Shown piece after piece: positions 5,218 to 59,723 of a stretch of DNA of 64,000 bases (the stretch's first letter is position 1; every line of letters begins with the position of its first letter). The translations under genes and the position numbers were made by a program. The notes beneath the pieces are model-generated. The model had not been told where the DNA came from. It ran no database searches and worked only from the letters and a program-made list of their open reading frames with translations. The stretch covers positions 6,699 to 70,698 of IMG/VR virus record IMGVR_UViG_3300029959_000009. The stretch is one strand, 5' to 3'. Origin of the DNA: a virus. Its lineage: Duplodnaviria > Caudoviricetes.

Positions 5218-6366
5218 TTAAATTACGTTCTGCTCGTTGAACATCTTGGTAAACGTGGCGCGATCCATGGCCCGGCGATCCTCGATCCATTCCCAGCCAT
5301 GCTCTTGGCAGACCTTTTGAATCGTCTTCCCCCCACCGTAGACACAGAAAATGATATCCTTTTTACCCTGGCGCGCCTCTTCGGAGCCTTCGAGGAATCG
5401 CTGCTTTGCGAGCTCGTACTGCGGGAGGTTCTTATCAGGCCACTCGCTGTAGCCCCTGGTGAAGTATGCTCTCCATCCTGGAGGTATCCCGAGCATGTTG
5501 AGGTCGAAGAACCGCTCGTTGACGTTCATGTCAGCGTAAATCAAGCGCCCGTTTTCTTGCCAAAATCTCGATATCCATCTTTTTTCATAAATTTTACCGA
5601 GGACGTAGGCGCGTCTCATATCCCGATAGTTACTGAAATTGGGTTCGACTAAGTTCCTCGCGCCCGATTTTAGCGGCTTGGTGGGATCTTTCCAGAGGGA
5701 TTCAAACTTGTCGTCCTCACAGTACCAATGAATCGTTCCCCGGCGCTGTGTGCGGTGATTGATATCCCCCCATTGAACTACGGGCCGATCCGGGAAAGTA
5801 TCGGCCTGCATGTTAAGAGCTAATACCGGCACTTCCCAATCGTTATCGGTCGGATAGGTGATATCAGGAACGTCTTCTTTAGTGAGTTCTTCGGGCTTCG
5901 GGGGTTTATAAGACTCTATATTGAACTCTGGAAGGGGGTCTTCTATCCATTTATCGAGTTGTAAAGGCTTTAATGGCTCTAAATCAAAACCGCCTAGCTT
6001 TAGGGCCGAAAGCTCTTCGGTCATCACCGAGTTGTCGTACTTTGCGATATTAGCGCTTCGGTTATGTGCTATTCGATATGCTTTGGCTTGGTCTTTGTTA
6101 AGCTTCTCGCAGATGAGAACAGGTACTTCCATCATGCCCTTTTGTTTTGCGGCGATCAGCCTGCCGTGACCTGCTATAATCTCCAAATCGGCGTCGCAAA
6201 TAATTACATCAGAGAACCCAAAGCTGTCGATGCTGGAATAGATAGCTGCTAAGTCGCGCTGGCCGTGTTTCTTGGAGTTTCGTTCATAGGGCCGAATGGA
6301 GTCCACGGGCAGAACATCGATTTTTAAGCCGAGCTCCGCTAACTTGGTAGAGATATCCTGTTCCAT
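5218..6366 (-). CDS. ParB/Srx-like N-terminal domain fused to DUF4417-like domain
   Basis: IRPYERNSKKH...IIAGHGRLIAAKQ (ParB) and IHWYCEDDKFESLW...PNFSNYRD (DUF4417-like). Confidence 0.75.
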   Translation of the reverse strand: MEQDISTKLAELGLKIDVLPVDSIRPYERNSKKHGQRDLAAIYSSIDSFGFSDVIICDADLEIIAGHGRLIAAKQKGMMEVPVLICEKLNKDQAKAYRIAHNRSANIAKYDNSVMTEELSALKLGGFDLEPLKPLQLDKWIEDPLPEFNIESYKPPKPEELTKEDVPDITYPTDNDWEVPVLALNMQADTFPDRPVVQWGDINHRTQRRGTIHWYCEDDKFESLWKDPTKPLKSGARNLVEPNFSNYRDMRRAYVLGKIYEKRWISRFWQENGRLIYADMNVNERFFDLNMLGIPPGWRAYFTRGYSEWPDKNLPQYELAKQRFLEGSEEARQGKKDIIFCVYGGGKTIQKVCQEHGWEWIEDRRAMDRATFTKMFNEQNVI

Positions 6367-6390: not shown

Positions 6391-7092
6391 TTATTCGGGG
6401 TCTTCCCACTGTCTGCTTGAGGGGTTCCAATAGGTGTATTTTCTCTCTGGGTGATGTGGGCAAAATCCGAAATGTCCTATAGAGAAATTGCAGTTCATGC
6501 AGAGGATACGATACTCTTTTTTTAATTCCTCGGGCCACCCCAGTCTGTTAAACTCTTTTAGTAAAGAGTTCCCGGATTTGGCCCTAGGAGATCGTCTATA
6601 ATCATTGCCGTGCCCATTTATATGATCTATCGAGAGAAATTCGCGCGTTGATTCTCCACAGCAAGCACATGGCCCGAAAAATTCCAACGCACTCTCCCAA
6701 AGATGATCTAAATATTTCTTAAATCTTTTTGAGTATTTTTCTGGACACGCCTTCCGGTCCTTTTTGGCAAATTCTGAGACGTGGCGAGAGATGTCCTTCG
6801 GCTTTGAGTAATAATAATCCATCGCGTGCTTTATGTTACAGTCTTTGCATATCGCATGTAGCCCCAGCCGTTTATTTCGTTCGCATTTATGGAACTCGCC
6901 CAGGGGTTTTTCTTCGCCGCATCTACTACAGCGCTTCGTTTCTGGCAAAACTTCCAACCGACGAACTCTTAATGACTCGTAATAGCATTCATTGGAACAG
7001 AATTTGCGGCCTCGATTGGCTACTGAATAATAAGTCTCAACTTCTTTACCACATGTCTTACATTGAAATTTTATGGTTCGTGATGGTTTCAC
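6391..7092 (-). CDS. HNH homing endonuclease with N-terminal zinc fingers
   Basis: CACCGE..LSIDHING...ILCMNCN catalytic region; several CxxC pairs. Confidence 0.8.
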   Translation of the reverse strand: MKPSRTIKFQCKTCGKEVETYYSVANRGRKFCSNECYYESLRVRRLEVLPETKRCSRCGEEKPLGEFHKCERNKRLGLHAICKDCNIKHAMDYYYSKPKDISRHVSEFAKKDRKACPEKYSKRFKKYLDHLWESALEFFGPCACCGESTREFLSIDHINGHGNDYRRSPRAKSGNSLLKEFNRLGWPEELKKEYRILCMNCNFSIGHFGFCPHHPERKYTYWNPSSRQWEDPE

Positions 7093-11400: not shown

Positions 11401-12271
11401 TCAACTTTGACTCTTCGCACTCTCTGCAATCCTTTCCATCACATTGTTTATCGTGCATTGATACCTTCTCCTTTCCTTTACCTGATATCCAAATATCGCA
11501 TTCTCCGGGTGCTGCTCTATCCAATCGAGGCTCACCTCGACCACCTGGAACCGCACCGCCTTCACCCACTCTTCCTCATCCCATGGCCGCTCGAAAATCC
11601 TCTCCCACACGACTTTGAACTCTTCCAGGGAGTTGTAGCCCTCGTTCCAGGCGCTTGCCGCCGTCATGTCGCCCAGCTGCTCCTCCCACCTGTCGAGGAT
11701 CTCCAGTTTGGCGAAGTATTCGGGCTTCAGCATGAGGGGCTTGGCCTGCTGGACGCTCCAGCGCTTGACGCGCCAGGTGCGCCACTGCCGCCTGGTTTCG
11801 ACCTTGCGACCGCATAAGATTTTAGGAATGTGTTCGACTGTGAACTCCTCCCACGCCCTAAAGGGCGGGGCTTCCCACTGGTACTTCCTGGTAGGGGATC
11901 ATAGCCCTCTGGCTCCTCGCCCGTTTTGTGGGAATTTTCGGTTTCCGCTTCATCGGGGTCAACTTGAGCCCTTCTTGCAAAGGGGTACAGAGGTTGTCCG
12001 CTCGACGGACAGACTTTCGGGGTGTTCCCTCCCTACTATTGGACCTACAAGAGGTCATAAGATCTCCCTTCAGGGAGAAATGATCGATCACCCAAGTAGC
12101 GCTTTCAGCCTGCATGAGATCATATCTTGGAATGGAATAGGTCGTTATGAGATATATGGCTAATGTACAGAGCGAAAGTAATCAAGGGGAGGACTCCACT
12201 CTCATCCCCGGCCTGAAGTCCGGGGACTTCCCGTTCCGTCCTCTCCGCTCCTGCGAGTTAAACAATAGCAT
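11401..12271 (-). pseudogene. ASCH-domain gene split by a non-autonomous IS605 derivative
   Basis: Joining 12271-12258 to 11839-11401 gives MLLFKVEHIPKILCGRKVETRR...AWNEGYNSLEEFKVVW, a typical ASCH GxKxxTxR motif, in frame. Confidence 0.8.
11840..12257 (-). mobile_element. Non-autonomous IS200/IS605 derivative (418 bp)
   Basis: The first ~70 bp nearly match the left end of the 27148 and 37268 elements. Right end gggaagccccgccctttagggcgtgggaggagTTCAC. Inserted 3' of TTAA; no tnpA or tnpB. Confidence 0.85.
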
Positions 12272-19700: not shown

Positions 19701-20438
19701 TTACGATTCCTGTTCAATCCGAGGAGCAAGTAAATACTCCACCAGCACGCCCTTCGCAATCTCGATCACAAGCCTCATCGGATAGTTGTTCCCAATCTCC
19801 AGATGGACGCTCGGAGCCTTCCCGGCCGCCTTCGCCATATCCTCTAAATAGTCCAGGGAGAACAAAGAATGCGCCTGCCCGTGCCTGCCGCCGAGCATCA
19901 GCGACAGCTCGCGCTCGAACCGCACCGAGTCTATGTCGCCCTTTGCGCCCGCTATGAACTTCGCGTCGTCCATGCCGAAGGCGATGTGGTCGCTGACCTT
20001 CTTGGCCGCCTTGATGATGTGCTTGAACTCGAATCCTGCCATATCCACCCAGACGGGCAGATCAACCTCAGGAACGACAGGCGGCTTGCGAAGTGCCGTT
20101 ATGTCGATCAGCGAGAGCTTATACGACAGCCCGCCCATGCCGACCAGGAGCTTCATGTTCTCCTCGTCGAGCTGCAGGGCGACCGCCTCATCGTCCTTCG
20201 CCATCGCCAGGGCATCCTCCAGCCGCACGAGATCCACCCCGATAGAGCCGGGGGTAGTCTTGAAGAACTCGAACGACGACGCGGCCATCTTCAAACAGAC
20301 CATGCAGATGTTCGCCGCGTCTACGGACTTGACCTCAAGACCCGTATCAGAGACCTCGATTTTACACTCCTCGACGAGGCTCGATATGGACTCAATGGCG
20401 TTCTTGAGGATCTTTGCGTTAATGACCACCTTAAACAT
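19701..20438 (-). CDS. pcn: DNA polymerase sliding clamp PCNA
   Basis: 245 aa; VDAANICMV, IGVDL..L, FSLDYL and YLLAPRIE motifs. Confidence 0.95.
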   Translation of the reverse strand: MFKVVINAKILKNAIESISSLVEECKIEVSDTGLEVKSVDAANICMVCLKMAASSFEFFKTTPGSIGVDLVRLEDALAMAKDDEAVALQLDEENMKLLVGMGGLSYKLSLIDITALRKPPVVPEVDLPVWVDMAGFEFKHIIKAAKKVSDHIAFGMDDAKFIAGAKGDIDSVRFERELSLMLGGRHGQAHSLFSLDYLEDMAKAAGKAPSVHLEIGNNYPMRLVIEIAKGVLVEYLLAPRIEQES

Positions 20439-23632: not shown

Positions 23633-24115
23633 ATGAATGTTCGACGTCTCGCGTCAGGCGGTGGTGTGATTTTTTACGTAACTTCTGCGGCGAACCCGGC
23701 CGTAGAGTACCGCGTCGTCTACAACCCCATCACGCGGCGCTGGCACTGCTCCTGTCTTCATTGGGTTAATCGCTGCTCCTTATCAGGCGAGTCCTGCAAG
23801 CACATTCTAGCAGCCCAGGAGCAGCACCCCGCCGCCTTTGTCATCGACCAGCCCGAAGAGAAGACGCAGGGCCGCACGATGCTCGATGCCCTGGAGGGCC
23901 GGGGGCCGAGGGAGATCGACGGCAACGCGGCTGAGAGGATGCTGCGAAACTCCGAGGCCCGGCTGCGGGTGGCCGAGGCGGCCAGGGTGGCGCGCCGGCA
24001 CCAGCTGAAGAAGAGACTCGATGCGGGGTACAAGAAGCTGCGGAGGAGCAGGCCGTGCAAGCTGGAAGGGAGCATAAGGCCGGGCGGGAAGATGAACTTT
24101 AGCGAGGAGCTATGA
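23633..24115 (+). CDS. SWIM zinc-finger protein
   Basis: YRVVY...WHCSCLHW...SCKHILAA. Confidence 0.75.
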   Translation: MNVRRLASGGGVIFYVTSAANPAVEYRVVYNPITRRWHCSCLHWVNRCSLSGESCKHILAAQEQHPAAFVIDQPEEKTQGRTMLDALEGRGPREIDGNAAERMLRNSEARLRVAEAARVARRHQLKKRLDAGYKKLRRSRPCKLEGSIRPGGKMNFSEEL

Positions 24116-25287
24116 TCTACCAAGGCGACTGTCTGGAGGTCCTCAAGACACTGCCGGGTGAGTCGGTGGACTGCTGCGTGACCTCGCCCCCTTATTTCAA
24201 CCTCCGAGACTATCAAGTCGAAGGACAAATAGGCCTCGAAGATAGCCCCGAAGAGTACGTCGAGAAGCTTGTGACCGTCTTTGGAGAGGTGCGAAGAGTC
24301 CTGAAGGATCGCGGGACTTGCTGGATTGTGATAGGCGATTCTTACGCCGCTAAAAGGGGTTATCAGGTTCCAGATAGTAAGTACAAAGACGTTGGAAACA
24401 GTCGAGGCATGAAGGCCAGTGATTACGGCCTGAAGCCCAAAGACCTGATCGGCATCCCCTGGATGGTGGCTTTTGCTCTGAGGGCGGATGGATGGTATCT
24501 CCGAGGAGATTATATTTGGGCAAAACCGGCACCGATGCCAGAAAGCGTAACTGATCGGTGCGTAAAATCCCATGAATATATATTTCACTTCTCAAAGAAG
24601 GCTAAATATTATTTCGACCATATAGCCATCGAAGAGGATTCGGTAAGCGACCATAAATCAGGAAATGGGTTCAAACGCTCAGCTCGAGTATCCTATCAGA
24701 ACCAAGACGGCTCAGCTCGAGGGAATGAGGATCAATGGGGTGAAGTTGGTGGCAAGCGTAATAAGCGGTCGGTGTGGGCGATCAATACTAAACCATTCAA
24801 AGAGGCACACTTCGCAACATTCCCACCAGAAATCCCGGCGATCTGCATTAAGGCCGGGACCTCCGAGAAGGGCGTATGCCCTGCGTGCGGGGCGCCGTGG
24901 GTTAGGCAGCTCGAAAAGAGCCACGTTAAACCCGTAGATTACGCGGGCAAGTCCTCCACGCAAGATAAGCAATTCTCAAGCCGTCGTATCTCCGCAAATA
25001 CGCGGGCCCGGAGGCTTGCAGGCGGCGAGCACGATAACCCCTTTCCGGCCGCCAAAACAATCGGCTGGCGTCCCTCCTGCTCCTGTATCCTAGATTGTGC
25101 TTGGGGCGGCCCGATTCCGGCCACTGTCCTCGATCCCTTCTTCGGAGCTGGAACCACGGGCGTCGTTTCGAGGAAGCTCCTGAGGAACTACATCGGTATC
25201 GAGCTGAACGGAGATTACATCAAGATCGCCAAGACGCGGCTAGCTAAGATCCCCGCCCCCCTGACAATGTTCGCGGGCGGTGATTGA
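24112..25287 (+). CDS. DNA methyltransferase, beta class (N4-cytosine/N6-adenine)
   Basis: VTSPPY catalytic motif before the VLDPFFGAGTTG SAM-binding motif; HFATFP. Confidence 0.92.
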   Translation: MIYQGDCLEVLKTLPGESVDCCVTSPPYFNLRDYQVEGQIGLEDSPEEYVEKLVTVFGEVRRVLKDRGTCWIVIGDSYAAKRGYQVPDSKYKDVGNSRGMKASDYGLKPKDLIGIPWMVAFALRADGWYLRGDYIWAKPAPMPESVTDRCVKSHEYIFHFSKKAKYYFDHIAIEEDSVSDHKSGNGFKRSARVSYQNQDGSARGNEDQWGEVGGKRNKRSVWAINTKPFKEAHFATFPPEIPAICIKAGTSEKGVCPACGAPWVRQLEKSHVKPVDYAGKSSTQDKQFSSRRISANTRARRLAGGEHDNPFPAAKTIGWRPSCSCILDCAWGGPIPATVLDPFFGAGTTGVVSRKLLRNYIGIELNGDYIKIAKTRLAKIPAPLTMFAGGD

Positions 25288-27069: not shown

Positions 27070-27274
27070 ACACCTTTTTGGGGTGCGATATGGATTTCAA
27101 AGAGTTGCGGATGCGGCGCAAGATTATCTACGTGTCCGAGAAATTAACTCGCAGGAGCGGAGAGGACGGAGCGAGAAGTCCCCGGACTTCAGGCCGTGGG
27201 ATGAAAGCGGAGTCCTCCCTTTTTCTTACATGATCACCGATAACTATTTAAGGCAATAATGGGATACACTTATT

Positions 27275-27694
27275 TTGGTAAAACCTATGAAGTATAAGCT
27301 CGATAGATCTGCTCATTCCGTGTATTCTCTCCATTATCATTTGGTGGTAGTGGTGAAATACCGGAGGAAAGCACTCTATGATGAGGTGATTAGGGAGCGC
27401 CTGAAGCAGATCATATGGAGTTTGACGGATGATCTTGGAATAGAAATACTTGCACAAGAGCCTGCTGAAGATCATCTTCATGTGTTGTTCAAGGCCACGC
27501 CTAAAACCAATCTGGTCAACATTGTGAACGTCATCAAAGGCGTAACTGCTAGAAGGCTTAGACAGGAATTTCCACAGACCAAAGCGTTTCTTTGGGGAGA
27601 TTCTTTCTGGTCCGACTCCTATTTCATAGCCTCAACAGGGCAGGTTAGCATTGATATCCTGATGCAGTATGTAGAATCTCAGATGGAGAAGTAA
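27275..27694 (+). CDS. tnpA: IS200/IS605 Y1 HUH transposase
   Basis: YHLVVVVKYR, DHLHVL (HUH), IKGVTAR, WSDSYF. Confidence 0.95.
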   Translation: MVKPMKYKLDRSAHSVYSLHYHLVVVVKYRRKALYDEVIRERLKQIIWSLTDDLGIEILAQEPAEDHLHVLFKATPKTNLVNIVNVIKGVTARRLRQEFPQTKAFLWGDSFWSDSYFIASTGQVSIDILMQYVESQMEK

Positions 27695-28881
27695 TGACTA
27701 TCAGCTACAAGTATCCGATATTCCCAGATAAAGCGACTCAGCAAAAGTTAGCTGAAGCTCTGGATGCTTGTAGATGGCTTCATAACCGACTTCTTCAAGA
27801 GCTGAACGAAGCTAGGGAGAAAGGTATCAAACTCAAAACCTATGACACCCAGAACATGATACCCTCTCTGAAGCTTGAGAATCCCAAACTGAATCTGGTC
27901 TATTCCAAAGTTCTTCAGATGGTCAACTACACTCTCTGGTCTAACATCAAAGGTCTCTCGGCTTCTAAGAAGAATGGCCGAAAGGTAGGTCATGTCAGAT
28001 TCAAAGGTTATGGCTGGTATAAGACCATGAACTACAACCAGTCTGGATTCAAACTGGATCAAGATCACGGCAGATTGCATCTATCCAAGATAGGCGACAT
28101 CAGGATCAAAATGCATCGCAAGATCCAAGGATGCATCAAAGCAATCCTAATCAAGAGAGAAGGCAGGCAATGGTTTGCTATTGTTCAAGCCGATCAAGAT
28201 CCAGAGCCATTGCCAGAAACTGGTAATTCAATCGGGTTAGATGTCGGCCTGAAGTCCTTTGTTGTAGATACTGGTGGCAATTCTGTAGAGAATCCGAGAT
28301 TTGCTGAGAAATCTGCTGATAAGTTAGCTAAGGCTCAGAAACGATTGGCCAGAGCCGAACAGGGATCTAACAACCGCCGAAAGATCAAAGAGCAGATAGA
28401 GACGATCCATAAGAGGATCAACAACCAGAGAGATGATTTCCTCCATAAACTTTCAAGGCTCTATGTCAATAACTACGATAATATCTGCATAGAAGATCTA
28501 GATGTCAAAGGTCTGAAAGAAAAAGGCCACAACAAAGGAAAGCATCGTAGTATCCATGATGCGTCCTGGGCCAAATTTGCGTTCATGCTTTCGTACAAGG
28601 CTGAAAGTGCTGGTCGAAGGCTGATCAAGGTCGATCCAAGGAACACAACTCAGAGGTGTTCCAATTGTGGAAGTATTGTTCCAAAAGATGAATCTGTCAG
28701 AGTTCATGAGTGTCCTTACTGTGGGTTCTCATGTGACCGTGACTATAACGCTTCCATAAATATACTCATCGCAGGGATGGAACAGCCCGTAGCGCCCATA
28801 GAGTCAAAACCTCTACATCGCATATCTGTGATGCAAGTTTTGGCGATGAAGTGGGAAGCCCTACCCTTTAGGGTAGGGTAG
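27694..28881 (+). CDS. tnpB: RNA-guided endonuclease TnpB
   Basis: RuvC motifs IGLDVG, IEDL and DRDYNAS; CxxC/CPxCG zinc finger. Confidence 0.95.
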   Translation: MTISYKYPIFPDKATQQKLAEALDACRWLHNRLLQELNEAREKGIKLKTYDTQNMIPSLKLENPKLNLVYSKVLQMVNYTLWSNIKGLSASKKNGRKVGHVRFKGYGWYKTMNYNQSGFKLDQDHGRLHLSKIGDIRIKMHRKIQGCIKAILIKREGRQWFAIVQADQDPEPLPETGNSIGLDVGLKSFVVDTGGNSVENPRFAEKSADKLAKAQKRLARAEQGSNNRRKIKEQIETIHKRINNQRDDFLHKLSRLYVNNYDNICIEDLDVKGLKEKGHNKGKHRSIHDASWAKFAFMLSYKAESAGRRLIKVDPRNTTQRCSNCGSIVPKDESVRVHECPYCGFSCDRDYNASINILIAGMEQPVAPIESKPLHRISVMQVLAMKWEALPFRVG

Positions 28882-29166
28882 TTCACTTGTGGACGTGTTG
28901 CGTGGTCTGGGAGACGTCGAGACGATCTCCTTGCCGATGGTAAAACCTCCCGAAGAGGGCAGCATCGTCGTTAGGGTGTGGCCGGATTACACGCGCCACG
29001 CTTTTGCTGTCGAGATGGTTAATGAGAACTGGCCGGTAGTGCTCGATGGCTGTAGATGTCCTGAAGGGGATGCTGAAGTTGTAAGGCGGTTCTTCTATGT
29101 CGATGCAGAGAACCCCTCGGTGCTGAAGACAGTCGAAAGATAGCCAAAGCTAGGAGTGGTAGAGAA

Positions 29167-34850: not shown

Positions 34851-34985
34851 ATGGCATTAAAGCGTTACACATGTTTGCGGTGTGGTAAAGAGTGGATACC
34901 GCGAAAGGATGGAAAGCCCCGAACCTGCCCCAACCCGAAATGCAGGTCGGTCTATTGGGATGTGCCCCGGAGAGAGAAAGAATGA
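34851..34985 (+). CDS. Zn-ribbon microprotein (44 aa)
   Basis: CLRCGKEWIPRK...CPNPKCRSVYW; ATGA overlap with the endonuclease gene. Confidence 0.6.
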   Translation: MALKRYTCLRCGKEWIPRKDGKPRTCPNPKCRSVYWDVPRREKE

Positions 34986-35818
34986 GGAAAGGCAGCCACC
35001 TATCAGAGGAACATAAAGCGAAATTATCTAAAGCTAATATGGGAAAGCACCCATCACCCGAAACCCGCGCAAAGATGTCGAAGTCGCGCAGTGGGGAGAG
35101 GCATTACTTGTATGGAAAGCATCTATCGCCTGAAGTAAAAGCCAAGATATCTAAGACAGAACGAGGGAAGATCATTCCTGAAGATGTGCGCCTCAAGATG
35201 TCCGAGTCCCACAAAGGCGCTAGAAACTGTAATTTTGGGAGAGAGTTTAGCGAGGAGCATCGCGCCAAAATATCACAAGCAAGAAGAGGCCGACGCGCCC
35301 CTCCAGAGACCCGCGCAAAGATGGCTGCCTCGCAAAGCGGTCGTCGGCACTCCCCGGAGACGCGTGCCAAAATGTCTGCTTGGCAAATAGGGAGGAAATT
35401 GCCCCCCGAAACGGTCGCTAAGGTCGTAGCTACAAACGTTCGCCTCGGAACCCGCGCGGGTGAGAGGAATGGCAGGTGGAGAGGGGGCGTATCATTCGGC
35501 CCATATTGCCCAAAGTTCAACTTTGAATTTAAAGAACGTGTGCGGGAGTTCTTTGGTCGCAAATGCTTGATTTGTGATAAAACGGAGGCAGACAATGGCA
35601 GAAAGCTCGACGTGCATCACGTTGCTTATGACAAAATGATTTGTTGCAATGATAAAAAACCTTTGTTTGCTGCCCTTTGCACATCACACAATTCAATCGC
35701 CAACAATGGCCGAGATGGTTGGGAGCATATGTTTACATACATCATCGAGGAGGTATATAAAGGCAAATCGTTCTACTCGAAAGAGGAGATGTCTGCATTA
35801 AAATGTAACAAAAATTAA
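34982..35818 (+). CDS. NUMOD3-repeat HNH homing endonuclease
   Basis: About eight H-S-(E/P)E-x-R/K-A-K-M/I-S repeats followed by CLICD...LDVHH...ALC; opposite strand to the virion operon. Confidence 0.85.
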   Translation: MRKGSHLSEEHKAKLSKANMGKHPSPETRAKMSKSRSGERHYLYGKHLSPEVKAKISKTERGKIIPEDVRLKMSESHKGARNCNFGREFSEEHRAKISQARRGRRAPPETRAKMAASQSGRRHSPETRAKMSAWQIGRKLPPETVAKVVATNVRLGTRAGERNGRWRGGVSFGPYCPKFNFEFKERVREFFGRKCLICDKTEADNGRKLDVHHVAYDKMICCNDKKPLFAALCTSHNSIANNGRDGWEHMFTYIIEEVYKGKSFYSKEEMSALKCNKN

Positions 35819-35826
35819 TATATATC

Positions 35827-36258
35827 CTATACTATATTATTGTCGTTGCACTCAACAAGAGTAACGTCCCACTCGATTGCAAACGTCTGCATACCCGTCC
35901 TCGGCACTCTGCGGAGCTTGCTTTCGATATACATCAGGAGCGGAGAGGATCTCAGGAGGTGGCACTGGACCTCATGCGGCGCGTAGTTGTCGAGGGCGTC
36001 CATGGTCTCTTTGTCGTCTTTGGTGAACGTCGTAACAACGAAATGCAAGACCTTCAGGGCGACGGGTTCCGTGGCTTGGGTGATGGTCATATAGCCAGGA
36101 ACGGGCTGCCTTACGACCTCGAAGCGTTCCGTGATTTCAAGGACATTGGGCATCGGCAAGCAATCCTCCTCCCAAGTGCCCTCCTCGGCGCTACTCGACC
36201 TATTGAACTCAATGCCGTCAATAGCAAATGGAATAATATCATCTTGATATTCGACCAT
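35827..36258 (-). CDS. Tail-associated protein following the tape measure (possible tube initiator); contains the array's gapped match
   Basis: GGTG RBS before ATG 36258; myovirus gene order TMP-X-hub. Confidence 0.6.
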   Translation of the reverse strand: MVEYQDDIIPFAIDGIEFNRSSSAEEGTWEEDCLPMPNVLEITERFEVVRQPVPGYMTITQATEPVALKVLHFVVTTFTKDDKETMDALDNYAPHEVQCHLLRSSPLLMYIESKLRRVPRTGMQTFAIEWDVTLVECNDNNIV

Positions 36259-36297
36259 AACACCGTCCAAGAAAAAAATAAACTTGCCTCTTGTAAT

Positions 36298-36600
36298 TCA
36301 GATCGCGCTTAAGATATCATCCAACTTTTGACTCAGCTTTTGAGGATCTTCTATAAGCTCGTACCCCAATCTATAGATCCGCCAACCCTCATTCTTTAAG
36401 ATCTTGTCTCGAAACCGATCACGCCTCTTATTGCTACTGCCATCATGGCATGGGCCATCGGCTTCGATAACAATCCCGCCTTCAATCACAATATCCAAGA
36501 CGAACCCCGAAGGAGTTGGGTGTTGAGCTAAAAACTCAACATCTCGCGCCTTCAAGGCATCCATCACCACTTTCTCAAGCGATGTTGGTTTGTAATCCAT
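36298..36600 (-). CDS. DUF559/Vsr-like endonuclease
   Basis: TSLEK..., LDIV...VIEADG..H...RDRFRD..L...GWRIYR. Confidence 0.85.
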   Translation of the reverse strand: MDYKPTSLEKVVMDALKARDVEFLAQHPTPSGFVLDIVIEGGIVIEADGPCHDGSSNKRRDRFRDKILKNEGWRIYRLGYELIEDPQKLSQKLDDILSAI

Positions 36601-36700
36601 ACACTACCACGCAACACTTCACATAGCACGGCATCACAGTGCAACTCATCACAAGACAAGGCCGAACAGGGCCATACAGGGCGCGACAGCGCATCGCCTC
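36601..36700 (-). ncRNA. Pentamer array, 20 x NN-(T/G)GY; putative gapped guide RNA
   Basis: gaggc gatgc gctgt cgcgc cctgt atggc cctgt tcggc cttgt cttgt gatga gttgc actgt gatgc cgtgc tatgt gaagt gttgc gtggt agtgt. G at position 4 in 20/20 units, Y at position 5 in 19/20, TGY 13, GGY 4. Confidence 0.85.
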
Positions 36701-37394
36701 GTTTAAACCGCTCCTACTAAGGAGCAGGCTTTACCTCATCGACCTTTGTAACGGCAAATCTCCCATAGGGGCCACCGCGTTCAGGCCGGAAATCTCCAAG
36801 TCCTATCCTAGTGCCTGCATAGCTTAAGATTTCTTCGACTATCGAACCCCCATGATTGACATCCAAAAATACTGGATCTATCACTTTAATTTGGAATTCG
36901 CATGCCCACGCATCGAACCTCGGGCGGGCCTTCAGAACTCGTGCCCTATTGATTACAACAGGCCGAAGGTCCACAACCCAATTGCCTATCAGCAATGGCT
37001 CCTCGGGCACCGTCTCTAGGCCACTCATGACGAGGTCTTTAAAGGTCTTCTTGCCTTTACCGCCCACTCTGAAATTTGTAGCAGCTCGGCGCATCGATGC
37101 TAGGAGGTTCATACCAGGCATCACGACTTCGCCCTCGGCGTTCAAATATAGGCCCATCTGAGCTTCTTCTTCCGGGGTCCACTTAGGGGCGTTCTTGCCA
37201 CGCTTTTGGCTTTCTATCATCTCCCTTGTACTATGCATCAACAGGGGCTTTATACCTTCGATTTTAACTCGCAGGAGCGGAGAGGACGGAGCGAGAAGTC
37301 CCCGGACTTCAGGCCGTGGGATGAAAGCGGAGTCCTCCCTTTTTCTTACATGATCACCGATAACTATTTAAGGCAATAATGGGATACACTTATT

Positions 37395-37814
37395 TTGGTA
37401 AAACCTATGAAGTATAAGCTCGATAGATCTGCTCATTCCGTGTATTCTCTCCATTATCATTTGGTGGTAGTGGTGAAATACCGGAGGAAAGCACTCTATG
37501 ATGAGGTGATTAGGGAGCGCCTGAAGCAGATCATATGGAGTTTGACGGATGATCTTGGAATAGAAATACTTGCACAAGAGCCTGCTGAAGATCATCTTCA
37601 TGTGTTGTTCAAGGCCACGCCTAAAACCAATCTGGTCAACATTGTGAACGTCATCAAAGGCGTAACTGCTAGAAGGCTTAGACAGGAATTTCCACAGACC
37701 AAAGCGTTTCTTTGGGGAGATTCTTTCTGGTCCGACTCCTATTTCATAGCCTCAACAGGGCAGGTTAGCATTGATATCCTGATGCAGTATGTAGAATCTC
37801 AGATGGAGAAGTAA
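37395..37814 (+). CDS. tnpA: IS200/IS605 Y1 transposase
   Basis: Translation identical to 27275-27694. Confidence 0.95.
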   Translation: MVKPMKYKLDRSAHSVYSLHYHLVVVVKYRRKALYDEVIRERLKQIIWSLTDDLGIEILAQEPAEDHLHVLFKATPKTNLVNIVNVIKGVTARRLRQEFPQTKAFLWGDSFWSDSYFIASTGQVSIDILMQYVESQMEK

Positions 37815-39001
37815 TGACTATCAGCTACAAGTATCCGATATTCCCAGATAAAGCGACTCAGCAAAAGTTAGCTGAAGCTCTGGATGCTTGTAGATGGCTT
37901 CATAACCGACTTCTTCAAGAGCTGAACGAAGCTAGGGAGAAAGGTATCAAACTCAAAACCTATGACACCCAGAACATGATACCCTCTCTGAAGCTTGAGA
38001 ATCCCAAACTGAATCTGGTCTATTCCAAAGTTCTTCAGATGGTCAACTACACTCTCTGGTCTAACATCAAAGGTCTCTCGGCTTCTAAGAAGAATGGCCG
38101 AAAGGTAGGTCATGTCAGATTCAAAGGTTATGGCTGGTATAAGACCATGAACTACAACCAGTCTGGATTCAAACTGGATCAAGATCACGGCAGATTGCAT
38201 CTATCCAAGATAGGCGACATCAGGATCAAAATGCATCGCAAGATCCAAGGATGCATCAAAGCAATCCTAATCAAGAGAGAAGGCAGGCAATGGTTTGCTA
38301 TTGTTCAAGCCGATCAAGATCCAGAGCCATTGCCAGAAACTGGTAATTCAATCGGGTTAGATGTCGGCCTGAAGTCCTTTGTTGTAGATACTGGTGGCAA
38401 TTCTGTAGAGAATCCGAGATTTGCTGAGAAATCTGCTGATAAGTTAGCTAAGGCTCAGAAACGATTGGCCAGAGCCGAACAGGGATCTAACAACCGCCGA
38501 AAGATCAAAGAGCAGATAGAGACGATCCATAAGAGGATCAACAACCAGAGAGATGATTTCCTCCATAAACTTTCAAGGCTCTATGTCAATAACTACGATA
38601 ATATCTGCATAGAAGATCTAGATGTCAAAGGTCTGAAAGAAAAAGGCCACAACAAAGGAAAGCATCGTAGTATCCATGATGCGTCCTGGGCCAAATTTGC
38701 GTTCATGCTTTCGTACAAGGCTGAAAGTGCTGGTCGAAGGCTGATCAAGGTCGATCCAAGGAACACAACTCAGAGGTGTTCCAATTGTGGAAGTATTGTT
38801 CCAAAAGATGAATCTGTCAGAGTTCATGAGTGTCCTTACTGTGGGTTCTCATGTGACCGTGACTATAACGCTTCCATAAATATACTCATCGCAGGGATGG
38901 AACAGCCCGTAGCGCCCATAGAGTCAAAACCTCTACATCGCATATCTGTGATGCAAGTTTTGGCGATGAAGTGGGAAGCCCTACCCTTTAGGGTAGGGTA
39001 G
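37814..39001 (+). CDS. tnpB: RNA-guided endonuclease TnpB
   Basis: Translation identical to 27694-28881. Confidence 0.95.
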   Translation: MTISYKYPIFPDKATQQKLAEALDACRWLHNRLLQELNEAREKGIKLKTYDTQNMIPSLKLENPKLNLVYSKVLQMVNYTLWSNIKGLSASKKNGRKVGHVRFKGYGWYKTMNYNQSGFKLDQDHGRLHLSKIGDIRIKMHRKIQGCIKAILIKREGRQWFAIVQADQDPEPLPETGNSIGLDVGLKSFVVDTGGNSVENPRFAEKSADKLAKAQKRLARAEQGSNNRRKIKEQIETIHKRINNQRDDFLHKLSRLYVNNYDNICIEDLDVKGLKEKGHNKGKHRSIHDASWAKFAFMLSYKAESAGRRLIKVDPRNTTQRCSNCGSIVPKDESVRVHECPYCGFSCDRDYNASINILIAGMEQPVAPIESKPLHRISVMQVLAMKWEALPFRVG

Positions 39002-39060
39002 TTCACCCTCGAAGGTTTTCATCAACGGTTCGGGCTTAAACTCCATCAGTTCTCACCGAT

Positions 39061-39135
39061 TAGCATACGTGCATAATAGTATAAGTATCTATTGGTGCAT
39101 AGATGCTAATACATAACAAACTATATAAACTCATG
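39061..39135. promoter_or_regulatory. Divergent promoter of the RAMP cassette and the RHH gene
   Basis: TATATAAA at 39122-39129 (TTTATATA on minus); TAGCAT/ATGCTA inverted pair at 39061 and 39103; GTGCATA twice. Confidence 0.5.
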
Positions 39136-39151
39136 TGCCGTAATGCTTATT

Positions 39152-39310
39152 ATGGCGCGAACGACCTTAACTTTATCCGATCCGATCATGCGCACTCTAA
39201 GAACCCACGCAGCCCGGACGAAGAACAGCTCCAAAGCCCAAAGCGAAGTTGTTGAGGAGGCTCTAAAGGAGTATTTCGAGAGATACCACATTCAGATAGA
39301 AGCTTCGTAA
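39152..39310 (+). CDS. Ribbon-helix-helix (CopG-like) regulator (52 aa)
   Basis: MARTTLTLSDPIMRTLR...QSEVVEEALKEYF. Confidence 0.75.
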   Translation: MARTTLTLSDPIMRTLRTHAARTKNSSKAQSEVVEEALKEYFERYHIQIEAS

Positions 39311-39328: not shown

Positions 39329-41764
39329 TCAAGCGATATAGGCTCTGTTGGCCCTACCCACGGCGGCCTCGACCTTGCTCTTGAACTCAAAGCTACTCAG
39401 CTCCTTCTCAAGACCCTCCCGGATCTGTCTGGCTATGCTGTAGCCGTCTGCCCCTCCGGTCGGTGCTACGTGAATATCGCCGATCTGGACAGTAATATTG
39501 CCTCCGCCAGACCCGCCCGCTGCTATGTCTTTGAGGCTGTTTATCAGAACAGAGGACCTCGCCACTTCAGCCGGAACGATGGGCTCGCCCTCGTCAACCC
39601 AGGCGAGGCCGGAGCGCTGGACCTCTCCACCGACTGCATTTTTATTCCTGAAAATGTAGTCGTAGGCCATCCGGCCGTACAGCTGCAGGCCGCCCTCCAC
39701 ATCAGCCGACCCCTTGATTTGGTCGGATGGCTTGGTGCGGATATCCAGGCCGCCCGGCCCCTTGATATCGTTGGTGTATGCAGGATTGTAGAATGGGTTT
39801 CCAGAGGCCGCGCCCAACGGCGAAACGTCTTTATCTCCGGCGTTGGGGTTTGCCAGCTTGTTTCGCAGGGCATCAACCATGTCGTTATACTTCTTTTCGT
39901 TAGCTCCTTCTGGCCTCATGGGCTTGCCCGTTTGGGCTTCCTCGATGGCTGCTAAAATGGTGGCGTTGCCGAAGTCGTACTTATCTCGGCCTTTGCTATC
40001 GTCGAGGCTCTTGACCCAATCGACCAGCTTCCATTTTGCGTCCTCTGTGAGCGGCTTCTGCCCGCCGCCAGTGAACTTATCGACGATCTGCTTGAGGTAC
40101 TCGTATATTTTCACCAGCGGGGCGAGCTTATCGACGATTGCCCCATGGATATCTCTGAGCCAGTTAGTGAACCCGTCCCAGAGGTCTTTCATCTTCTGCA
40201 GCACGTACAGAATCATATCCTGTACGCGCTTGGAGGGTAAAAGAGCCTCGGCGAAGCCTGCCACAAGGCCCATGGGAGAGAGCTTGATAGCCAGCCCGAT
40301 GCCGCCTTTCAGAGCGCCCCCGATGTCGCCGGACTTCCACAGCTTGTAGAGGGCGTCTACCTGGTCGAACAGGCCCGCCACGTAACCGGATACTGTTTCG
40401 ATGGCCTTGCCAACGCCGCTGAAGTAATCCCCCTCTCCGAGAATCCCGAATGAGGCGAGCAGGCTGTTAAGCCCGTTGATCAGGTCTTTGCCGATCTCGC
40501 TTTTGGCGAAGTGGTCCCACGCCTTGCTGAAGACCTGGAACCTGGACTCCAGCGAGGAGAGGACGACTGCCAGGGCGACAATAGCGACGATTGCGAGCCC
40601 GATGGGGTTCGCCAGCAAAGATGCTGTGAGGGCCGTGATGCCGCCCGTGACCAGGCCGAGGATCGTCGGGAGGACTGCAAAGGCTGTGCCCAGGCCCAGG
40701 ACCACGGCAATCAGGGCCGGAACCTCAGGAACCAGTGCAAGGAGCTTTACAACCGCCGTCGTAAATCCCATTATGATGGTCGCCGCTGGCCTGATGGCGT
40801 TGCCTATCCCCTCGTTCAGCTTCTCGAACGACCTGGTAAGATCCCTCATGCCGACGCGGTAGCTGTCGGTGTCGGGCTCAACCTGCTCCCCGATCCTCTC
40901 CAGTGCTTTTGAGGCCAGACGGCGGCGGGCCTCGGCCTCGACTACCTCATCGGATTGATAGGCAAAACTCTTCTCGCGCTGGACCTTCAGCTTCTCGGTC
41001 TGCAGCGTCCCGGCCTTGAAGAACTCGGGCATCTTGCTCTTCACGATGCGCCCGATATCCGAGTTCTCGTCCAGGGGGTTCGAGAGTGTCTGCAGGAGGC
41101 CTTTCTCGTCGGTTATCCCGAAGCCTGCCAGCGATTGCCCGAACGTCGAGGACATGATGCGCTCGGCGTTCTTGATATTCTTCTGGATCACGGACTGATC
41201 GCGGTAGCCCGTCATTGCCATATATCCGGCGAGGTTGCCCCTGGTGAGCGAAGACGTGCCGAAGCCCTGATCGCCCTTCGAGATGAAGTTCAGGACACCC
41301 CCTGCCTGGCTTCCGAGCTGGTCCCTGATCATGGCGATGTTCAGCCGTTGGGCCTCTGCGACCTGAAGGGCAGACTTGGCGTAAGCGACCATCCCGGCCG
41401 CAGCTCCCGCTACGATGAGCTTGCCGGCGTCGAGCTTCTGGAAGAACGAGCCGACTGTATCCCCTGCCTTCTTCGACTGATCGGCCATAGCCCGGAGCTT
41501 ATCGTTCATCCCTCCGAGGGCCTTATCCTGCTCCTTGATGCCTTTGGTAGCCTTGGACGTGTCGATCTCACCAGCGGCTTTCGTGGCCTTCTCGACGCTC
41601 TTTATGGCCTTTTCAGCCTCTTTGGTGGCGACGGCTACGGTCATCGTGTAGCTCTTCGCCGTGAGTGCCGTGGCCTTCGCCAAGAGTCTGTCGAGGCCCT
41701 TTTCGCCGCCCTCGTCTCTAAGCAGGGTTCGGATGATGAAGTCTCTGATATTCTCTGTCGCCAC
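39329..41764 (-). CDS. Tail tape measure protein
   Basis: 811 aa, Ala/Gly/Lys-rich helical, NPIGLAIVAI hydrophobic segment, downstream of the chaperone. Confidence 0.9.
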   Translation of the reverse strand: MATENIRDFIIRTLLRDEGGEKGLDRLLAKATALTAKSYTMTVAVATKEAEKAIKSVEKATKAAGEIDTSKATKGIKEQDKALGGMNDKLRAMADQSKKAGDTVGSFFQKLDAGKLIVAGAAAGMVAYAKSALQVAEAQRLNIAMIRDQLGSQAGGVLNFISKGDQGFGTSSLTRGNLAGYMAMTGYRDQSVIQKNIKNAERIMSSTFGQSLAGFGITDEKGLLQTLSNPLDENSDIGRIVKSKMPEFFKAGTLQTEKLKVQREKSFAYQSDEVVEAEARRRLASKALERIGEQVEPDTDSYRVGMRDLTRSFEKLNEGIGNAIRPAATIIMGFTTAVVKLLALVPEVPALIAVVLGLGTAFAVLPTILGLVTGGITALTASLLANPIGLAIVAIVALAVVLSSLESRFQVFSKAWDHFAKSEIGKDLINGLNSLLASFGILGEGDYFSGVGKAIETVSGYVAGLFDQVDALYKLWKSGDIGGALKGGIGLAIKLSPMGLVAGFAEALLPSKRVQDMILYVLQKMKDLWDGFTNWLRDIHGAIVDKLAPLVKIYEYLKQIVDKFTGGGQKPLTEDAKWKLVDWVKSLDDSKGRDKYDFGNATILAAIEEAQTGKPMRPEGANEKKYNDMVDALRNKLANPNAGDKDVSPLGAASGNPFYNPAYTNDIKGPGGLDIRTKPSDQIKGSADVEGGLQLYGRMAYDYIFRNKNAVGGEVQRSGLAWVDEGEPIVPAEVARSSVLINSLKDIAAGGSGGGNITVQIGDIHVAPTGGADGYSIARQIREGLEKELSSFEFKSKVEAAVGRANRAYIA

Positions 41765-57597: not shown

Positions 57598-58371
57598 TCA
57601 CAAGCTCAATATCGCGTTTTTCACATATTCTGCCATAATATAATATCCACTCGATGATAAATGTACCCCGTCTAAATAATATCTAGCATCATATGCGACG
57701 CTGTCAGGATCGCCGATGTTGATCCCGATGACCGGATCAAGTGCGACATCCGCCAGCGCATCTGCGAAATCGGTATATCCTGCACGCAAGGCAATGTTTA
57801 ACGCGTCTCGGTGGGGCTCATAGCCTACCACTTCGTACTCTGCCGGGAGAGACAGGACCACAACCTCGAAGCCCGTTGCCTTTCGAGCCAGACACCAGGT
57901 TTCGATGTAGCCATACACATCGTCTTCATCAATCGAATGCTCTGGGCCATGCCTGAGATCGTTTACAGTTAGAAGAACCGCTATGTTCTTCTGATAATCG
58001 GAATCATACAGGGCATCGACATTTGCCACCGCGCGATCTAGTATCGCGGGTGGGTTATATGTACTCATGTATGAGCCAGAGATTCCAACATTTGTTACTT
58101 TTTGCAAGCCGGCGTCTCGGAGCATATACGCGAGCCAAGCGGGATACGACATCTGGACATTGTAGCCGAACGTCACCGAGTCACCTTCGCAAACAATATT
58201 TTTGAACTGGCTCTTGTAATTAGCTTGCAAATACCCGCTGAGCGCAAATGCGCTATTTCCATAGACGGCATTTGCAATTCTGCGCCCCATGGCTGATATT
58301 CCTGGATCGGATGACCCGATACAATTCTCGAAATCTTGCCCGGTTGCGATCCATCTAGGCGCGCCCCTCAT
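57598..58371 (-). CDS. SGNH/GDSL hydrolase
   Basis: EGDSVTFG (block I), NVGISG, VND, DGVHLSSSGY (DxxH). Confidence 0.85.
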   Translation of the reverse strand: MRGAPRWIATGQDFENCIGSSDPGISAMGRRIANAVYGNSAFALSGYLQANYKSQFKNIVCEGDSVTFGYNVQMSYPAWLAYMLRDAGLQKVTNVGISGSYMSTYNPPAILDRAVANVDALYDSDYQKNIAVLLTVNDLRHGPEHSIDEDDVYGYIETWCLARKATGFEVVVLSLPAEYEVVGYEPHRDALNIALRAGYTDFADALADVALDPVIGINIGDPDSVAYDARYYLDGVHLSSSGYYIMAEYVKNAILSL

Positions 58372-59723
58372 ACAGGCTCCGAACAGAATCGAGTAGTCTG
58401 ATAGACCGCTGCTGTGCCTCTACTACCGGGACGGCGATACGCTGGCCCGCAATATGCTGCGAACGTTGGAATGCCCCCCCCAAGCATTTTTTGTATGGCT
58501 GCAATCCCCTGGCTATAGATCTGCCCCCTTCCGAGAGATGCTTGCCAAGCATTTGCAGGAGCGACATTTGCGCTAGCATTCCCGCTTGTCACTGTCTGCG
58601 GATCTCCGCTGACCACTACCTGATGGGTATGCACCGCCGCCGTCCCGAACTCAGACATATTGTCCTCGAGGTACTGTTCCAGAGTACCAGTGGCCCCAAT
58701 AACGCCGTAATGGGAAATGATTGATTTCCCGGTGGAGTCAAGGGGGAAATTTGAAATTGTTGGATTCACCGCCCCTGCTACACAAGTTCCCACGGGGCTA
58801 CCAGTTGCGGCTTTCAAGAACTCCGAATCGAACAGCATTCGTTTTCCTTGAAGGTGGCCGTAAGTTGTCAGCGTCTCGTATGGGACAGATACCTTGATGG
58901 TCGCGCCGAAGACCGATGTTATTGTCGCGCCCACGCCGTTTGCCATATATATATCTGAGCGAAGAGCAGGTATGCCGTCGCTTGGAGTCAGACTCAGTTT
59001 CACCATGCCTTCTGGCGTCGATTTCGGTCTATCGAGCAGATCCCAAATTGAATTGAATATGATATCACCCATCAGGAAGCCATAATATGGGTCAGTGCCC
59101 TGAACTAGATTCTCGCAGCCATTCAGGTCGCATGTCCAGGTGACTTGATCATCTACGACAGTTTCACCGGGAGTGGTTGGCCATGTCGGTTCTGTGGCCG
59201 CATCGGTTTTGAAGTCGCCTGCCCGCGAAGTACATCGATAGAGAAGCTTTGTAGCACCGGGAGTGACAGGTTGAACGACATAATTTACTGTGGTTACGGT
59301 ATCTGCTGCCCAGGTCGGTGCAGTGACGTAGGGAAGGCAGTGGAAGCCGCCAATTTTTCTAGAATTGTTTGCATCATAGCCACTAGGCCAGGTAGACGCA
59401 TCTGATATCAGGATCTTCGGAGCAGTTCCAGATACAGGGACACATGCATAGATGTAGAAGTCCTTTCCTGCTCTGTTAGCCGCGACTGTGTAGTCGGTCG
59501 GCGTTTGTGTATCCCATGTAGCTGCGATATTGAGATCATATTCCTGTGCTGATGTCAGCTCATAGCCTCGTCCTGCTCCAATAGCCCCAATTTTTACGAG
59601 CAATTCTGCCGGAGAGACCAATATCGTTCTATCTGCGGCTAGGCTTTTAATATGCCATGTAGTATCTGATCTACTGTATGCGTTTGGTTGGGCAGATCGC
59701 CTTTCAAGGACCCCCATGCTCAC
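58368..59723 (-). CDS. Major-tropism-determinant-like (CLec/FGE-type) receptor-binding protein
   Basis: SRKIGGFH, SIWDL..RPK..PEGMV, GKRM...EF..AATGSP, LGGG...CG...RFCSEP. Confidence 0.65.
   Translation of the reverse strand: MSMGVLERRSAQPNAYSRSDTTWHIKSLAADRTILVSPAELLVKIGAIGAGRGYELTSAQEYDLNIAATWDTQTPTDYTVAANRAGKDFYIYACVPVSGTAPKILISDASTWPSGYDANNSRKIGGFHCLPYVTAPTWAADTVTTVNYVVQPVTPGATKLLYRCTSRAGDFKTDAATEPTWPTTPGETVVDDQVTWTCDLNGCENLVQGTDPYYGFLMGDIIFNSIWDLLDRPKSTPEGMVKLSLTPSDGIPALRSDIYMANGVGATITSVFGATIKVSVPYETLTTYGHLQGKRMLFDSEFLKAATGSPVGTCVAGAVNPTISNFPLDSTGKSIISHYGVIGATGTLEQYLEDNMSEFGTAAVHTHQVVVSGDPQTVTSGNASANVAPANAWQASLGRGQIYSQGIAAIQKMLGGGIPTFAAYCGPAYRRPGSRGTAAVYQTTRFCSEPV

Follow-up and report, generated by a model that had tools for sequence, protein, structure and literature searches.

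The closest described relatives of the locus reported here are the VIPR systems, whose experimental exemplars are type II systems from Escherichia phage SUSP1 and a Pseudomonas fulva prophage (10.64898/2026.04.26.720920,.720927, 10.64898/2026.10.15.759431). According to the searched text of the 2026 VIPR preprints, to which our statements about published systems are limited throughout, each guide dinucleotide (NN) pairs with a target NN, one target base, usually a codon wobble base, is skipped, and natural targets match at 80% or more of the NN positions (10.64898/2026.04.26.720920,.720927). Silencing is the mechanism shown experimentally for type II, seven types have been described, some of them nuclease-bearing, and VIPRs in archaeal viruses have already been reported. 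We analyzed a 64,000-nt stretch of a tailed virus (the window; positions 6,699 to 70,698 of IMG/VR record IMGVR_UViG_3300029959_000009); coordinates are window positions, and genome scans cover the whole 70,698-bp (70.7-kb) viral contig. The locus at 36298-39310 is very probably a VIPR cassette, made up of a ribbon-helix-helix (RHH) gene, vipr, one guide RNA (vrRNA) and a DUF559-type nuclease gene, which was inserted where the tape-measure gene meets the tail gene after it and which reads the alleles of that tail gene in relatives of the virus.

Like the SUSP1 and P. fulva systems, the locus has a homologous RAMP of about 20 kDa with a single RNA recognition motif (RRM), a G-loop and a thumb, and tandem pentamers on the vipr strand with a fixed trinucleotide and a variable NN. 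Further common features are a 1-nt-skip code kept in codon register, targets that lie in competing viral elements, and a minimal locus in a viral genome with an accessory gene acting on DNA (predicted here). The locus differs in several respects. The window array has 20-21 units against 9-16 in the studied VIPR clades, and its first scaffold base is mostly T. Each array here has a 5' hairpin, whereas the 3' pseudoknot tail of SUSP1 and P. fulva is not evident. The accessory gene is a DUF559/Vsr-like nuclease here and a predicted DNA-binding vap in type II. The host is probably archaeal, vipr is interrupted by an insertion sequence (IS), and the target is a flanking gene in close relatives rather than a satellite or a lysogeny regulator. 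Because it has 20-21 units, no structured 3' tail and a nuclease accessory, whereas type II has 9-16 YNNGG units and a DNA-binding vap1, the locus, judged by its sequence, is not a type II member. VIPR types III-V resemble it in joining Vipr to a predicted DNA nuclease, with guides matching viral sequences (10.64898/2026.04.26.720920), but types III and V are described as occurring preferentially in cellular defence islands, whereas the window cassette lies in a viral tail operon. In the searched text of that preprint, HNH is the only nuclease domain named and DUF559 is not mentioned.

A first-pass annotation of this DNA had pointed to phage VIPR systems and presented the locus as a TGY variant in an archaeal virus. 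Such systems do exist (10.64898/2026.04.26.720920,.720927), and the array is mostly TGY, but the variant is not new. Relaxed repeats NNNGG, YNNNG and NNNNG (10.64898/2026.04.26.720920) and clusters of WGT/NN and TGH/NN (10.64898/2026.10.21.760802) have been reported, in addition to the archaeal-virus VIPRs. The window array fits YNNNG or a relaxed N-G-Y, its T-G-Y is covered by TGH/WGT, and it differs from the reported non-canonical clusters in having 20-21 repeats instead of about 10. The locus thus belongs to the published family and is an addition to it, because the 2026 preprints cover VIPR, nuclease accessories, archaeal-virus hosts and repeat variants. What the sequence analysis appears to add is a decoded rival-allele target, its recurrence in sister cassettes and a clade-specific nuclease; the searched text of the VIPR discovery and competition preprints does not mention homing, DUF559/Vsr nucleases or flank-gene targeting.

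A further comparison is with Class 1 CRISPR Cas7 proteins (Csm3/Cmr4/Cas7), which share the fold and the principle that each fixed RNA step takes one subunit and has a flipped base. The VIPR step is 5 nt with two read bases, whereas that of Class 1 Cas7 is 6 nt with five. Unlike Class 1 CRISPR systems, the cassette has no CRISPR array, other cas genes or spacer acquisition module; the absence of cas genes refers to the cassette and the DNA beside it, as the whole 70.7-kb genome was not scanned for cas genes or CRISPR arrays.

The Vipr protein and its pentamer array

On the minus strand the cassette reads vipr, hairpin, pentamer array and DUF559 gene, with the RHH gene on the opposite strand. 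Its features and the adjoining target gene are as follows.

39143..39310, plus strand: RHH (CopG-type) gene, Pfam RHH_1 E=2.5e-5, divergent from vipr
39007..39046, minus strand: 5' piece of vipr (MEFKPEPLMKTFE...), the first 13 codons from ATG plus 1 nt, separated by the IS from the remainder
37268..39006, plus strand: IS200/IS605 element, 1739 bp, after TTAA within vipr; TnpA 37395-37814, TnpB 37814-39001
36717..37267, minus strand: 3' part of vipr, 183 codons plus stop; RAMP/Cas7-like, G-loop GLGDFRPE..GPYGRF
36705..36731, minus strand: hairpin spanning the vipr stop, stem CUGCUCC/GGAGCGG, 4 nt upstream of the array
36601..36700, minus strand: vrRNA repeat tract, 20 units NN-N-G-Y
36298..36600, minus strand: predicted small nuclease gene DUF559/MTES_1575, 100 codons; Pfam MTES_1575 E=1.6e-10, DUF559 E=2.5e-7
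36271..36282, minus strand: oligo-T run (TTTATTTTTTTC) 3' of the nuclease gene, found by sequence inspection
36109..36168, minus strand: near-self protospacer (EDCLPMPNVLEITERFEVVR), codons 35-54 of the adjacent tail-module gene
35827..36270, minus strand: target gene, a conserved 143-147-aa tail-module protein of unknown function with 17 homologues at 62-88% identity

The open reading frame (ORF) at 36717-37241 (174 aa) matches no Pfam family. The RRM/RAMP fold that had been proposed for its product was borne out by two comparisons. A profile of 41 family members matched PDB entry 36pp_D ('SUSP1 Vipr protein') with E=2.6e-21 over positions 3-180 of 184 (the window sequence alone gave E=0.0086), and the best Foldseek matches of an AlphaFold2 model of Vipr (pLDDT 89.5, pTM 0.82) were all Csm3-type Cas7 subunits, with a probability of ~1.0 and a TM of ~0.5. 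Vipr also matched phrog_4652 (E=9.7e-15). Its homologues (n=43, 170-237 aa) share an N-terminal V-x-I-x-G-x-x-P-L-L-x-H strand, an invariant RPRFD-x-W and a glycine-rich loop GLGDFRPE(..G)FGRF; the closest of them, P0002, is 53% identical and lies on a contig in which vipr is followed by a 222-nt gap and DUF559. By profile and predicted structure, then, the ORF is a true Vipr homologue, a single-RRM RAMP with G-loop and thumb.

In the SUSP1 structure determined by cryo-EM, the scaffold bases are contacted by H17 and D177 (G1), R138 and W178 (G2) and R179 (Y3) (10.64898/2026.04.26.720920,.720927). The window Vipr has H at the H17 position (PLLMH), R of RPRFD at R138, and D, F and R (GLGDFRP) at D177, W178 and R179; the W178 to F substitution is conservative and the other contact residues are identical. 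Across loci, arrays without G1 tended to pair with A or S at the D177 equivalent or with N at the H17 equivalent. In the Viprs of L049, L050, L051 and L055 the G-loop aspartate is replaced by A or S; in their arrays G1 is G in only 3-29% of the units and the first scaffold base is A- or T-rich, which fits the structural role of D177 in reading G1. By homology to the SUSP1 structures, Vipr protomers would polymerise on the RNA, one per pentamer, with N-G-Y buried and NN displayed.

The first-pass annotation had placed an array 16 nt after the stop of a RAMP-like ORF and up to the ATG of the DUF559 gene, and the coordinates agree: the vipr stop TAG is at 36717-36719, the 16-nt gap at 36701-36716, the 20 in-register pentamers at 36601-36700, and the DUF559 ATG begins at 36600. 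Its description of exactly 20 pentamers NN-(T/G)GY holds for the number of in-register units but not for the motif, which is strict in 17 of 20 (exceptions CGCGC, GATGA and GAAGT). Position 4 is G in 20/20 units, position 5 is Y in 19/20 (one A, in GATGA), and position 3 is T in 14, G in 4, C in 1 and A in 1. The guide dinucleotides read GA GA GC CG CC AT CC TC CT CT GA GT AC GA CG TA GA GT GT AG. A 21st in-register unit, ATGGA (36596-36600), is the DUF559 start.

Could the tract be a simple repeat that arose by chance or slippage, or a protein-binding array at the DNA level? We consider this extremely improbable. A run of 20 phase-locked G residues has a genome-wide expectation of ~6e-7, and no other run in the 70.7-kb genome is longer than 8. 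The NN positions do not repeat, and only under a 1-nt skip do they decode to the neighbouring gene. The search for 5-nt periodicity at homologous loci, which had been suggested earlier, found periodic G-Y arrays beside vipr, mostly on the same strand, in ~58/69 homologous IMG/VR loci. The family-wide arrays, the specificity for the skip rule and the allele matches described below have effectively refuted this explanation already.

The hairpin has a minimum free energy of -15 kcal/mol (z=-4.3, 0/200 shuffles). When nine arrays from the four closest cassettes (window, L070, L001 and L002) were folded, all of them had a stable hairpin directly upstream, with z between -2.2 and -5.0. MAFFT plus RNAalifold on these 5' hairpins gave no consensus because their stems differ in sequence, and an Rfam scan over 35.5-39.5 kb found no family. 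The hairpin is a candidate 5' handle or vrRNA processing signal. At the other end, a terminal unit AT-GG-H (H being A, T or C) closes most of the folded arrays and is found in L001, L002, L004 and L070 as well as the window (window 36596-36600; L001 5007-5011; L002 3283-3287; L004 4889-4893). Since a Vipr filament on the terminal unit would cover the DUF559 ATG, Vipr loading on the RNA may gate translation of the nuclease, a side possibility.

Guide targets in the flanking tail gene

We scanned the whole 70.7-kb genome with the guide on both strands and with skips of 0-3. The sole outlier was found with skip 1, on the same strand, at 36109-36168, where 31/40 guide bases match; the maximum elsewhere or under skips 0, 2 and 3 was 23, and the binomial genome-wide expectation of a 31/40 match is 1e-6. 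The match is in codon register, with the guide reading codon positions 1 and 2 of 20 codons and the skipped base at the wobble position. The guide obeys the published 1-nt-skip code, which supports the earlier reading of the locus, made from sequence, as one for CRISPR-free programmable recognition.

Alleles of the same gene in other viruses matched the window guide as follows.

35/40: L077, L078 and L081
34/40: L072 (a provirus in a metagenome-assembled genome (MAG) of Methanothrix) and L083
33/40: L070, L079 and L080
32/40: L074
31/40: self (the resident allele)

The nine foreign alleles, at 80-87.5%, all match in codon register and all score above self (77.5%), whereas the maximum of 200 unit-order shuffles was 27 and other skip lengths gave 23. 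Read as codons, the guide 'encodes' [DE][DE]-A-R-P-M-P-S-L-L-E-V-T-E-R-Y-E-V-V-R. The consensus of the target family is D-A-R-P-M-P-x-P-x-E-x-T-E-R-Y-E-V-V-R and the resident allele has E-D-C-L-P-M-P-N-V-L-E-I-T-E-R-F-E-V-V-R. The six codons mismatched against self correspond to amino-acid changes (A/C, R/L, S/N, L/V, V/I and Y/F), and at several mismatched codons the relatives carry the residue that the guide encodes. These data suggest that the guide is directed against the flanking tail gene as rival viruses encode it. The ten alleles, at 31-35/40, form a natural test set for mismatch tolerance.

The sister cassettes point in the same direction. The related virus L070 has the same gene order, running from the tape measure through RHH and vipr to a pair of arrays, DUF559, a second pair of arrays and the tail gene. 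Over 17 units, its fourth array (vr4) scores 33/34 against the beginning of this tail gene in the cassette-free provirus L072 and 27/34 against its own allele. One 4-nt unit of vr4 (TTGG, without Y, at 5979-5982) is followed by four more units in register; it is either an irregular unit that is tolerated or an assembly error. Near-self matches in flanking genes were also found for the last arrays of L001 (vr2, 27/38) and L002 (vr3, 25/32), each with 0/300 shuffles. In at least four carriers (window, L070, L001 and L002), the sole guide with a significant match to its own locus points at a flanking gene. The remaining arrays of these sisters (L070 vr1-3, L001 vr1, L002 vr1-2) matched nothing in the flanks, and those of L004, L006 and L018 had no significant target in the DNA examined.

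Since the adjacent gene is the top match in the virus's own genome and three sister cassettes also have near-self matches, the guide could serve in self-regulation, with the resident tail gene as its target (31/40) and timed repression of the virus's own late genes as its purpose. We regard this as very unlikely. All nine foreign alleles tested outscore self, the L070 guide matches 33/34 on a foreign allele against 27/34 on its own, and the published survey reports no self-targets at or above 80% (2026 VIPR preprints), a line below which the self match of the window falls.

The position of the cassette was apparent from the same relatives. It is present in the window, L070 and L071, and in L072-L081 the tape-measure gene abuts the target gene; because these cassette-free relatives join the two genes directly, the cassette is an insertion at the tape-measure/tail-gene junction. 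The target sites in L072 lie 27-160 bp from the empty insertion junction.

The DUF559 nuclease and the fate of the target

The DUF559 protein is a predicted nuclease, Vsr-like and of the PD-(D/E)xK type. DUF559 is found beside vipr in nine loci (L001-L006, L018, L070 and L071), which are among the closest Vipr relatives of the window in the set (37-48% identity), and also on the P0002 contig; D36, E46, D48 and H52 are invariant among these nucleases. From this distribution, DUF559 appears to be a clade-specific accessory (vap-like) gene.

In the proposed mechanism, the Vipr filament would bind the double-stranded DNA of a relative, either co-infecting or resident, at the tail gene, by gapped pairing with the template strand, as homology to the studied systems suggests. 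The DUF559 nuclease would then cut the marked DNA and bring about exclusion of, or homing into, cassette-free relatives, a step proposed from gene association. The combination of flanking-gene targeting with a clade-specific DUF559 suggests exclusion or homing as the outcome.

Free-standing homing endonuclease genes of phages, such as T4 seg/mob, are known for marker exclusion. Like seg/mob, the window has a nuclease cassette between conserved genes, a target in the neighbour gene of cassette-free relatives and a resident allele that differs. It would differ from seg/mob in that recognition would come from an RNA-protein filament and not from the nuclease's own DNA-binding domain. DUF559 might turn VIPR into an RNA-programmed homing or allele-exclusion element, in effect a gene drive: the filament marks the tail gene in a relative, the nuclease cuts, and repair copies in the cassette together with the linked, resistant flanking allele. 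This account extends the reading of the locus as a VIPR cassette aimed at relatives' alleles rather than excluding it, and we hold it tentatively, as possible but on balance doubtful. It is consistent with the strict linkage of the nuclease to this Vipr clade and its invariant catalytic-type residues, with presence or absence of the cassette exactly at the tape-measure/tail-gene junction, with the proximity of the L072 target sites to that junction, with the flanking-gene matches of the four carriers, and with a classical HNH homing endonuclease that borders this gene on its far side. On the other hand, cleavage and Vipr-nuclease contact are proposed from gene association only, published VIPRs silence (2026 VIPR preprints), most sister-cassette guides match nothing in the flanks, no co-conversion tract is demonstrable, and the carrier's own allele still matches at 77.5%.

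The locus may instead be a weapon of exclusion by silencing only, in which the ribonucleoprotein blocks transcription of a competitor's tail gene and DUF559 is an independent selfish or defence passenger. Silencing is what experiments have shown for type II VIPR, and where DUF559 lies with respect to the arrays differs from locus to locus. But such a weapon would be weak, since diffusible tail protein from the carrier complements the silenced copy, and the presence of DUF559 in all nine of the closest Vipr relatives whose DNA was analyzed, and on the P0002 contig, argues for a functional tie. That tail proteins act in trans and that the nuclease is constant in the clade is an argument, not evidence, that the nuclease matters. 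We judge silencing alone to be somewhat unlikely.

The IS interruption and the genomic setting

The element within vipr has the hallmarks of the IS200/IS605 family: a Y1 TnpA (Y1_Tnp E=1.9e-39) together with TnpB (OrfB_IS605 and Cas12f1-like_TNB), and insertion 3' of a short target motif. A second copy at 27144-28886 is 100% identical over 1743 bp, and the insertion is therefore very recent. A gene-less derivative of ~430 bp at 11833-12262, similar to a miniature inverted-repeat or palindrome-associated transposable element (MITE/PATE), has an IS-like left end (92% over 80 nt) and right end; all three elements follow TTAA(C) and end in GTTCAC. The first-pass annotation had spoken of a rejoined 196-aa protein, and this proved right once the IS (37268-39006) was removed. 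With the boundary at TTAA|C, removal gives an in-frame Vipr of 196 aa whose N-terminus, MEFKPEPLMKTFEVKIEGIKPLLMH..., fits the family, and joining the 5' piece to 37267 restores the V-x-I-x-G-x-x-P-L-L-x-H strand. Only this boundary restores the frame; one after TTAAC (5 nt) was ruled out, as it creates an in-frame TAA.

Members of the IS200/IS605 family typically excise seamlessly, which here would reverse the disruption, because removal of the IS gives an intact frame. The guide of a TnpB is the 16-20 nt right of the IS, and TTAA(C) would be the transposon-associated motif (TAM) here. By TnpB logic, a guide from this position (CCTCGAAGG...; 39007-39026 with 37264-37267) would re-cut the restored vipr. 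The locus would then hold one RNA-guided element, the IS605 TnpB, disabling or policing the gene of another.

The IS may have killed the cassette for good, leaving a dead relic whose array is decaying and whose T-rich scaffold comes from drift. This we consider unlikely. It is true that 1.7 kb lie between vipr and its start codon and promoter and that G1 is G in only 4/20 units (20%, the extreme) compared with ~60% in sister arrays (~57-65% in L001, L002 and L070). But the identity of the IS copies indicates a very recent insertion, position 4 (G in 20/20) and position 5 (Y in 19/20) show no decay, vipr is otherwise undamaged, the DUF559 ORF is unbroken and retains its conserved residues, and elements of this IS family excise seamlessly. 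The system is probably off in this assembly until the IS excises.

Several points weigh against our reading of the locus as a VIPR cassette directed at relatives' alleles. Self (77.5%) scores only a little below the lowest of the foreign alleles (80%). Pattern scans of IMG/VR and JGI metagenomes turned up no perfect natural target, the best match being 35/40. Binding of this array to Vipr is assumed, because the scaffold G1 is mostly T, though the G1-contacting H and D are conserved. A SUSP1-type 3' vrRNA tail is not evident, and since the array leads straight into the DUF559 ORF, no structured element follows it. As assembled, the 1.7-kb IS parts vipr from its start codon and presumed promoter, and with vipr interrupted nothing may be made now. 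Finally, the locus is known here from sequence alone; vrRNA expression and co-purification with Vipr are predictions.

Database searches gave the following negatives. An exact-target search with units 10-20 had 0 matches in IMG/VR, and the exact target allele (...ARPMPSLLEVTERYEVV...; encoding ...DARPMPSLLEVTERYEVV(R/S)) was unsampled in the IMG/VR and JGI metagenome searches. A single JGI metagenome match to units 8-17 was rejected as chance (22/40 overall). An IMG/VR peptide-pattern search for the target protein returned nothing, the cassette had no blastn match among 50,697 phage records, and neither Vipr nor the target gene had relatives in the GTDB representative genomes.

The divergent RHH gene had been noted at the first pass, as had the wedging of the locus into a tail operon; the Pfam match confirms the former, and the tape-measure gene (39329-41764), sheath gene and Baseplate_J homologue around the cassette confirm the latter. 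The RHH gene is separated from vipr by a divergent intergenic region of 96 bp and recurs at 81% identity in sister cassettes L001, L070 and L071, placed and oriented as in the window, and it is probably a transcriptional regulator of the cassette. In L079 (4720-5276) and L080 (2512-3068), an RHH 76% identical to that of the window, together with a 131-aa ORF, directly follows the target gene in viruses without VIPR. Because a similar RHH accompanies this different insert, its membership in VIPR proper is uncertain, and it may regulate accessory inserts in general rather than belong to VIPR. At the opposite end, the oligo-T run is a possible archaeal-type terminator closing the cassette, and a similar run is found at the end of the L070 cassette.

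On the far side of the target gene, a homing endonuclease of 308 aa, whose sequence shows repeated NUMOD3-like motifs and also an HNH region, is encoded at 34892-35818 on the plus strand (phrog_314 E=9e-22; also phrog_655 and phrog_8048). Inserted in opposite orientation, it separates the VIPR target gene from the tail gene that follows. The two genes are contiguous in L070 and L072, and the small tail gene is thus flanked by two different nuclease cassettes. Elsewhere in the window, a 451-aa protein (58368-59723, minus strand) has the second domain of Mtd (Pfam mtd_2nd, E=5.6e-15) and may be a diversity-generating retroelement target or a receptor-binding protein. The virus also encodes PCNA (PCNA_N and PCNA_C; 19701-20438, minus strand) and an N6/N4 DNA methylase (24112-25287, plus strand).

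In a MAG that NCBI names Methanothrix sp. (provirus L072), a relative of the tail module adjoins an integrase, and one of the 17 target-gene homologues is a Methanothrix sp. MAG protein in NCBI. Given the PCNA, the sheath, the tape measure and this one Methanothrix MAG provirus relative, it is reasonable to regard the virus as a tailed, PCNA-encoding virus of Methanothrix-like methanogenic archaea.

The locus offers a clear archaeal-virus example of an RNA-guided family that was described only in 2026, with a decoded natural target outside bacteria. If homing were true, the cassette would amount to an RNA-guided gene drive that occurs naturally in viruses of archaea. If the link to the nuclease is functional, VIPR would serve targeted cutting or homing besides silencing, and this would bear on the origin of RNA-guided nucleases such as CRISPR effectors from selfish viral elements.

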